Shown here one piece after another: positions 27,611 through 28,693 of a stretch of 41,822 nucleotides of DNA (positions within the stretch are counted from its first letter, which is position 1; the number at the start of each line of letters is the position of its first letter). A model generated the notes under the pieces. That model saw nothing but the letters and a program-made list of their open reading frames with translations. It made no database searches and was not told the DNA's origin. Source of the stretch: a virus (lineage: Duplodnaviria; Heunggongvirae; Uroviricota; Caudoviricetes); the IMG/VR virus record IMGVR_UViG_2897346870_000006; one strand, 5' to 3'. Made by a program: the position numbers and the translations under genes.

Positions 27611-28693
27611 ATGAAAAAATTAACAGTGGCAATTTCTGCTGTAGCTGCATCAGTACTGATGGCGATGTCTGCTCAGGCAGCTGAAATTTATAATAAAGAC
27701 AGTAACAAGCTGGATCTATACGGGAAAGTTAATGCCAAGCACTACTTCTCCTCTAATGATGCAGATGATGGTGATACTACTTATGCCCGTCTTGGCTTCA
27801 AAGGTGAAACCCAAATCAACGATCAACTGACTGGTTTCGGTCAGTGGGAATATGAATTCAAAGGCAACCGTGCTGAATCTCAAGGTTCTTCCAAAGACAA
27901 AACCCGTCTTGCATTTGCAGGCCTGAAATTTGGTGATTACGGCTCAATCGATTACGGCCGTAACTACGGTGTAGCATACGACATCGGTGCGTGGACTGAC
28001 GTCCTGCCAGAATTCGGTGGTGATACCTGGACCCAAACAGATGTGTTCATGACTGGTCGCACTACTGGTGTTGCAACTTATCGTAACAACGACTTCTTTG
28101 GTCTGGTCGATGGCCTGAACTTTGCTGCTCAGTATCAGGGTAAAAATGACCGCACTGACGTAACTGAAGCCAATGGTGATGGTTTCGGTTTCTCCACTAC
28201 TTATGAGTATGAAGGATTCGGCGTGGGTGCAACCTATGCTAAATCAGATCGCACTGACGGTCAGGTCGCCTATGGTAAGAGCAAATTCAATGCCTCCGGC
28301 AAAAATGCGGAAGTATGGGCTGCAGGTCTGAAATATGATGCGAACAATATCTATCTGGCTACCACATATTCTGAAACTCAGAATATGACCGTTTTTGGTA
28401 ATAACCATATTGCAAACAAAGCACAAAACTTTGAAGCAGTAGCACAATATCAGTTTGACTTCGGTCTGCGTCCATCTGTTGCTTACCTTCAGTCAAAAGG
28501 TAAAGACCTTGGTGTTCATGGTGACCGAGACTTAGTCAAGTATGTCGATGTCGGTGCTACTTACTACTTTAATAAAAACATGTCCACTTTTGTTGATTAC
28601 AAAATCAACTTAATTGACGATAGTAAGTTTACCAAAACAGCTGGTATTGATACCGACGACATCGTCGCTGTAGGTCTGGTTTATCAGTTCTAA
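27611..28693 (+). CDS. nmpC: Outer-membrane general porin (OmpC/OmpF/PhoE family; Lc/NmpC-like)
   Basis: 360 aa with signal peptide [30 protein letters not shown]..., C-terminal ...VGLVYQF; sits between Q and the lysis cassette on the opposite strand as in DLP12 and PA-2; 400 bp AT-rich upstream region. Confidence 0.9.

Follow-up and report, generated by a model that had tools for sequence, protein, structure and literature searches.

The window analysed here, a 41,822-nucleotide stretch of phage DNA, contained a porin gene on the plus strand, and its neighbors (antiterminator gene Q on one side, and the holin, lysozyme, and Rz genes on the other) were all on the minus strand, which placed the porin antisense between Q and the lysis cassette as the original prediction had described. 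This layout raised two questions: (i) whether late transcription has to run through the porin in antisense on its way to holin gene S and (ii) what the porin would do in a lysogen. The features that bear on the answers are collected in Table 1.

Table 1. Features of the region from Rz to Q, with positions and strands as in the window
Feature	Position	Strand	Basis
Rz	25875-26324	-	ORF and profile search
Lysozyme	26309-26806	-	ORF and profile search
Holin S, P21 type, first gene of the lysis cassette	26806..27021	-	ORF and profile search
Intrinsic terminator in the late leader: stem 27183 to 27162, then UUUUUCCAUUUUUU	27152..27183	-	Scan and fold
Conserved early-transcribed block GTTAAGAGTGGTTACTTCGTCAC, candidate Q-loading or pause region	27191..27213	-	Alignments
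PR' homologue: -35 TTTACG 27241 to 27236, 16-nt spacer, -10 TATGCT 27219 to 27214, predicted start ~27207	27214..27241	-	VT2-Sakai homology
Cargo cassette extent relative to Stx phages (~1.66 kb vs ~60 bp)	27245..28902		Homology break-points, approximate
AT-rich porin upstream region, 24-33% GC	27247..27610	+	Composition
CRP-like site AGAGA-N6-TCACA	27482-27502	+	Annotated in PA-2 record, mapped via alignment
Sigma-E-type promoter: GAACTA 27593 to 27588, 16-nt spacer, TCACT 27571 to 27567, start ~27561	27561..27593	-	By eye
Porin gene (NmpC/Lc/'OmpD' type), 360 aa, intact	27611..28693	+	ATG-to-stop ORF, Pfam, NCBIfam, PDB alignment
Porin signal peptide, 23 aa	27611-27679	+	Translation
Strong terminator for Q-direction transcripts: 16-bp stem 28744 to 28711, then CUUUUUCG	28703..28744	-	Fold
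Porin mRNA terminator: GGGGCGTTTCCACGCCCC then ATTTTTAATA	28832..28859	+	Scan and fold
Antiterminator Q, QuuD type, 127 aa	28882..29265	-	Pfam PF06530, E=7.7e-54

Integrity, identity, and spread of the porin gene

The gene had been called a complete general-porin gene of the OmpC/PhoE family, Lc/NmpC-like, and the sequence comparison bore this out. No frameshift or internal stop was seen in the translation of 27611-28693, and the Pfam profile PF00267 (Porin_1) covered the protein end to end (E=1.9e-151; residues 29-360 on profile positions 1-337 of 337). Residues 24-360 aligned across the complete mature chains of the solved OmpC, OmpK36, PhoE, and OmpF structures in PDB. By inspection, the translation displayed a signal peptide ending in AQA and followed by AE, the L3 motif PEFGGD at residues 133-138, and the C-terminus VYQF with its aromatic last residue. 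With 521 bits against a cut-off of 484, the porin belonged to the OmpC subfamily of NCBIfam, and it scored below both the PhoE and the OmpF equivalog cut-offs. Every trait that defines general porins or the NmpC/Lc porins of prophages and can be tested on sequence was present, and the product was predicted to be a trimeric 16-stranded beta-barrel with a pore.

The porin was 91% identical to K-12 NmpC (DLP12, b0553) over the 346 residues preceding an IS5 insertion and likewise 91% identical to Lc of phage PA-2. The gene order and orientations matched those of K-12 DLP12, namely quuD, nmpC (antisense), essD, rrrD, and rzpD, and the spacers on the S side and the Q side were 95% and 90% identical to those of DLP12, respectively; the layout was common to K-12 DLP12, PA-2, and phage 434B. 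The position of nmpC and lc between Q and the lysis genes has been known since the mid-1980s. The 2.5-kb Q-porin-S segment was found at coverage of at least 80% in 2394 of 5426 complete E. coli genomes and in 36 phage records, the latter including plaque-forming phages such as PhiR49_1 (99.9% identity over the segment), and the identical porin protein occurred on at least 1000 contigs under names including 'porin OmpC', 'OmpD', and 'outer membrane porin protein LC'. Judged from these comparisons, the porin is the already known NmpC/Lc gene in its known place, within an apparently intact prophage of the DLP12 family.

A 100% match to the Q-porin-S segment in one E. coli genome belonged to a complete prophage adjoining intD and tRNA-Arg (argU), and the integrase at the end of the window was 100% identical to IntD of that prophage. 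The window stopped at the integrase stop codon, and no tRNA (argU being expected) was found within it; the integration site was presumably argU because the identical integrase occurs next to argU elsewhere.

Further cargo was probably represented by the genes at 23934-25673, past Rz: a KilA-N/ORF11CD3 gene and a small ORF on the minus strand, together with a DUF1398 (YbcV-like) gene and a YlcI-like gene on the plus strand. K-12 DLP12 had borD at the corresponding place, while the window contained no borD. The phage 434 isolate 434B (OL657227.1, 39150-44557) carried the DLP12 version of the porin region, with nmpC broken by IS5 after codon 346, which looks like a pick-up from the cryptic prophage of a K-12 host; 434B additionally harbored an antisense gene for the lipid A deacylase LpxR between a Q fragment and ylcG.

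Candidate promoters and terminators on either side of the porin

Window segment 27160-27244, on the S side of the porin, matched hundreds of Stx-phage records at ~78% identity, and the matched spot in these records, located just after Q, was annotated successively as promoter, Q-utilization (qut), and terminator. Transcript ends mapped in Sakai by dRNA-seq and Term-seq (PMC7547250) fit the annotated Stx promoter and second terminator: the start was located 7 nt after the -10 element, and the second annotated terminator was located 258 nt on. The aligned VT2-Sakai sequence displayed the organization TTTACG-16 nt-TATCAT, then GATAAGAGTGGTTACATTGCCAC, then a hairpin, and the counterparts of the latter two in the window were GTTAAGAGTGGTTACTTCGTCAC and a hairpin with a U run. 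The resulting PR' homologue agreed with the consensus at 8 of 12 positions, which was under the threshold of the promoter scan, and it was unlisted there; the scan gave three hits across 26700-29300 vs 7.5 in shuffled sequence and was thus uninformative by itself.

Conservation set the PR' core apart from its surroundings. Among six porin-bearing loci, 93 of the 95 columns of the core (27152-27246) were invariant, and the adjoining spacers were less conserved (79% invariant columns in the AT-rich spacer and 82% in the S leader). The early-transcribed block was invariant in the six porin-bearing loci and near-identical in VT2-Sakai, Shigella phage SfII, and mEp390, the Q proteins of which were 48-76% identical to the window Q over the whole length. 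Within this otherwise strongly conserved block, the hexamer TACATT of 933W, which is followed there by GCC, was aligned to TACTTC followed by GTC in the window, and no -10-like pause element could be recognized with confidence.

The hairpin in the late leader was the sole terminator-like site listed by the scan between the candidate promoters and S. Its fold energy was -12 to -13.9 kcal/mol, with a z-score of only -1.4 vs shuffled sequence. The mapped terminator of the Stx phages was the one at +258 and not the first hairpin, while the first hairpin was the only candidate in the window. An Rfam search at permissive thresholds gave only two sub-threshold chance hits.

Two further observations concerned this leader. 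The first 'CRP binding site' of the 1986 PA-2 record (J02580 1067-1087, corresponding to 27187-27207) lay on the early-transcribed block of the PR' homologue, away from the porin promoter, and contained a perfect TGTGA half-site. At 27066-27082 in the S leader, the window and PhiR49_1 shared the 17-bp segment GTATCGCAATAAAGGCA, which was present as a 16-bp variant in PA-2 and ev099 and absent from K-12 DLP12, PhiR70_1, and Kati, which makes this stretch, immediately ahead of the ribosome-binding region of the holin gene, polymorphic for an indel.

On the other side of the porin, the window Q was 96% identical to K-12 QuuD and 76% identical overall to the Q of VT2-Sakai/933W, the latter figure comprising 81% identity over 121 aligned residues followed by divergent C-termini. 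The 90%-identity cluster that held the window Q had a 225-aa representative and several members named 'porin, partial', which probably reflects faulty clustering or gene calling where short contigs span the Q-porin junction. Two hairpins were recognized between Q and the porin stop: (i) the hairpin at 28711-28744 (-23 kcal/mol, z-score of -3.9 on the minus strand), with no U run on its plus-strand side, and (ii) the hairpin at 28832-28849, with its U run on the plus strand. The former was also tried as the terminator of the porin mRNA and was rejected, its U run being on the other strand. The two convergent terminators would keep the early-operon transcripts and the porin transcripts apart.

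A late promoter directly after Q, as in lambda, 82, and 933W, would have Q-modified RNA polymerase read across the porin in antisense to reach S, and this had been the default of the original prediction. Such a course is compatible with the ability of Q-modified RNA polymerase to ignore terminators; the strong minus-strand terminator downstream of Q could then be tR', and phages of the ev066 type apparently transcribe in this way across an antisense Blc gene (see below). A promoter at this place is nevertheless very unlikely in the window: no promoter-like site was found in the 188 bp that separate Q from the porin stop by the scan or by inspection of the minus strand at 28881-28745, the same interval displayed no similarity to 82-type or 933W-type PR', and the conserved PR' homologue with its terminator adjoined S instead. 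The original prediction had allowed one exception to its default, a late promoter between the porin and S, and the evidence fits this exception and does not support the default of an obligatory antisense passage. Late transcripts probably start between the porin and S, at or near the PR' homologue there, and are thus unlikely to run through the porin gene.

A second candidate promoter toward the lysis genes was of the sigma-E type and was located between the porin start codon and S, upstream of the leader hairpin; the match to the sigma-E consensus was judged by eye. Regulation of the lysis operon by RpoE was reportedly the subject of a 2015 paper by Rueggeberg et al. A passage of PMC7918800 gives the regulatory region of the DLP12 lysis operon as cloned from '-121 to +650' of the Rueggeberg 2015 start site, and the primers of PMC7918800 mapped to positions 6754 and 7504-7522 of the K-12 locus, which made the published +1 equivalent to window position ~27561. 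GAACTA-N16-TCACT ended 6 nt upstream of this primer-implied +1. The sigma-E-like promoter was arranged back-to-back with the porin 5' region, and its leader of ~540 nt would run through the PR' core and hairpin; if the promoter is real, this arrangement could in addition make transcription of the lysis-cassette leader responsive to envelope stress.

In the preferred reading, late transcription would begin beyond the porin, at the PR' homologue and the sigma-E-type promoter; transcripts from either would meet the leader terminator, and Q supplied in trans would be needed to reach S-R-Rz. Control of the DLP12 lysis operon by Q is attributed to Rueggeberg 2013 in a passage of PMC7918800. Integrity, identity, layout, homologies, and conservation were computed for the window, and from these we infer promoter use and Q dependence. 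The account as a whole, comprising an intact NmpC/Lc cargo gene, an insulated transcription unit, a late promoter on the S side, and Q acting in trans, is considered likely.

Probable expression in the lysogen, OmpC, and possible superinfection exclusion

A long AT-rich region upstream of the porin had been noted in the original prediction, and GC content was indeed 0.24-0.33 across 27150-27750 vs ~0.5 in the flanks. Within this region, the proportion of invariant columns among the six porin-bearing loci was 93% at 27481-27610 vs 79% at 27247-27480, and the 130 bp preceding the porin start codon, in which the CRP-like site of the PA-2 record is located, were nearly identical in DLP12 and PA-2. 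No sigma-70 promoter for the porin was listed on the plus strand by the promoter scan of 26700-29300. The heptamer CAGTGGC at 27624..27630 (plus strand, codons 5-7) was complementary to the 5' seed of the sRNA RybB, and the pairing is putative; nmpC mRNA itself is a RybB target in E. coli (PMC3333887).

The behavior of the nearest relatives was taken from the literature and covered expression, carbon regulation, and the trade-off with OmpC. In K-12 NCM3722, which has an intact nmpC, absolute proteomics placed NmpC at ~2% of the proteome; NmpC rose under carbon limitation, where it was the main porin alongside OmpF, and OmpC was more than 10-fold higher in MG1655, which has a broken nmpC, than with intact NmpC (PMC8144880). 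The original prediction that expression in a lysogen would change the outer-membrane surface and the receptor landscape found support in these data for the DLP12 copy only, through the high expression from the prophage and the more than 10-fold lower OmpC.

By this analogy, the porin of the window would be a self-contained cargo unit (a 'moron') that brings along a terminator and an AT-rich upstream region, the latter probably dependent on CRP, and its transcription in the lysogen would probably be independent of the phage programme. The product would leave the cytoplasm through Sec and form a general diffusion porin; following the DLP12 NmpC pattern, carbon limitation would make it one of the major outer-membrane proteins, in part at the cost of OmpC, and the lowered OmpC would change permeability and remove OmpC receptor surface. 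The porin is most likely regulated by the host, expressed from the prophage, and able to displace OmpC.

That the porin is ordinarily silent in the lysogen and confers no phenotype is an unlikely alternative. Very AT-rich DNA is the kind silenced by H-NS, and the scan found no consensus sigma-70 promoter upstream of the porin; on the other hand, PA-2 lysogens classically make Lc, the promoter-proximal 130 bp displayed 93% invariant columns across alleles, the ORF was intact, and its N-terminal half was 99-100% conserved. Quiescence would liken the porin to the 'quiescent porin genes' of E. coli B, a wording from the title of Prilipov et al. 1998 as cited in a passage of PMC3333887, but intact NmpC, at the proteome share given above for NCM3722, is a major porin under carbon limitation (PMC8144880).

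The porin sequence was unevenly conserved among alleles: residues 1-180 were 99-100% identical and residues 181-360 were 82-89% identical, with the differences clustered at the surface loops L4-L8 in the alignment with known porins. At least three allele classes, with short indels, were distinguished at 28151-28690: (i) the window and PhiR49_1, (ii) PA-2, Kati, and K-12, and (iii) ev099 and PhiR70_1. The C-terminal variability fits selection by some agent on an exposed surface.

Superinfection exclusion by this phage, as the original prediction had proposed, is plausible. The receptor of PA-2 is OmpC, and Lc lysogens lose OmpC. That exclusion, through lower OmpC or a decoy porin, was the selected function rather than nutrient uptake is possible, though hardly the favored view. 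A surface-loop half that is hypervariable and falls into three allele classes is expected for a surface exposed to phages or to immunity, yet variable loops would be expected as well if NmpC itself served other phages as a receptor. The receptor-binding end of J in the window was 99.5% identical to that of phage 2G7b; with phage 21 the identity of the J C-terminus fell to 70%, and with lambda and 434 to 52-53%, its best matches being in uncharacterised phages, which counts against exclusion. The more than 10-fold lower OmpC in the presence of intact NmpC would favor exclusion, but expression under carbon limitation fits a nutritional role (PMC8144880), and the carbon-limitation pattern of NmpC suggests such a role at least as strongly as exclusion.

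Cargo between Q and the putative PR' and comparison with known systems

Antisense cargo between Q and the lysis genes was also found in other lambdoid phages, with two different positions of the apparent late promoter. In SfII (locus 782-2700) and mEp390 (locus 2865-3930), the Q proteins of which were 48-53% identical to the window Q, antisense genes followed Q, and the conserved core starting with GTTAAGAGTGGTT and its hairpin were located behind this cargo, directly upstream of the holin gene. The cargo comprised two ORFs in SfII, one in mEp390, and the NmpC/Lc porin in the window; bidirectional terminators were annotated between Q and the cargo in mEp390. These loci suggest a recurrent cargo slot between Q and PR'.

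Phages of the Lambda_ev066 type, with a Q 84-88% identical to the window Q, displayed another organization: in Lambda_ev066 (LR597653.1, 41379-42060), Q was followed by TAGACT, TGTTAGAAT at ~+6 to +14, a terminator, and an antisense gene for the lipocalin Blc. PR' of phage 82 has been described as having an extended -10, a near-consensus -10-like element at +9 to +14, and a U at +25 (PMC5001585), and the site directly after Q in the ev066-type phages fit this description, the comparison resting on the verbal description and not on the phage 82 sequence. No 933W-type core was found in the ev066-type phages up to the lysis genes and holin. As a check on whether QuuD is an '82-type' Q, the window was compared with the description in PMC5001585 as well, and nothing in it fit. 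Late transcripts of ev066 apparently cross the antisense cargo, which is the opposite solution to that of the window. Because the ev066-type Q proteins are 84-88% identical to the window Q and yet go with what looks like an 82-type PR', Q similarity alone does not fix the target site.

Whether lambdoid phages with a PF06530 Q possess a distinct 'upstream cargo slot', in which antisense genes expressed in the lysogen are fenced by convergent terminators and never enter the late transcript, is doubtful as a general rule; if it were general and undescribed, it would be a modest organising rule for the wiring of prophage cargo, and it would differ from the 'downstream slot' after tR' that is used by stx.

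The porin gene itself adds nothing new on prophage porins. Two points are added: the antisense orientation of the porin is likely to be largely free of conflict with the late operon, and several phages with a PF06530 Q keep antisense cargo between Q and PR'. The former is of use in annotating late promoters in DLP12-like prophages and in telling prophage cargo that would be induced together with lysis from cargo expressed in the lysogenic state.

Comparison with DLP12 NmpC, PA-2 Lc, and the chromosomal porins delimited the porin as follows: (i) the window and DLP12 shared the porin position and orientation between quuD and essD as well as an IntD-type integrase, but nmpC of DLP12 in MG1655 was broken by IS5 after codon 346 and the window copy was intact, the two porins differed in the segments aligned with L4-L8, the mature protein was 5 residues shorter in the window, and DLP12 was a defective prophage while the prophage of the window was apparently complete (head, tail, and lysis genes); (ii) the window and PA-2, the Lc of which (protein 2, GenBank J02580) is the classical lysogenic-conversion porin, shared matching flanks including the PR' core and the annotated CRP site, but Lc had 365 aa and belonged to the K-12 NmpC allele class, the window porin had 360 aa, and PA-2 carried one substitution in the stem of the leader hairpin; and (iii) the window porin shared family, length class, the L3 PEFGG motif, and the C-terminal Phe with chromosomal OmpC, OmpF, and PhoE and with Salmonella OmpD, but unlike chromosomal ompC it was prophage-borne, notwithstanding its labels 'porin OmpC' (PGAP) and 'OmpD' (phage record).

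The Stx phages (933W and VT2-Sakai) and the window had homologous -35 hexamers, spacer length, early-transcribed blocks, and first hairpins, but they displayed marked differences around this shared core. PR' overlapped the 3' end of Q in the Stx phages, with the Q stop codon of VT2-Sakai located inside the PR' spacer, while ~1.66 kb of antisense cargo parted Q from PR' in the window, the simplest history being that a cassette of this size sits between the body of Q and its promoter. The window also had neither the StxS part of the leader nor the +258 terminator. The cargo of the Stx phages (tRNAs and stx) was located downstream of tR' in the sense orientation and under Q control, while the porin looks like an insulated unit expressed in the lysogen and wired unlike the Shiga toxin genes downstream of a like promoter.
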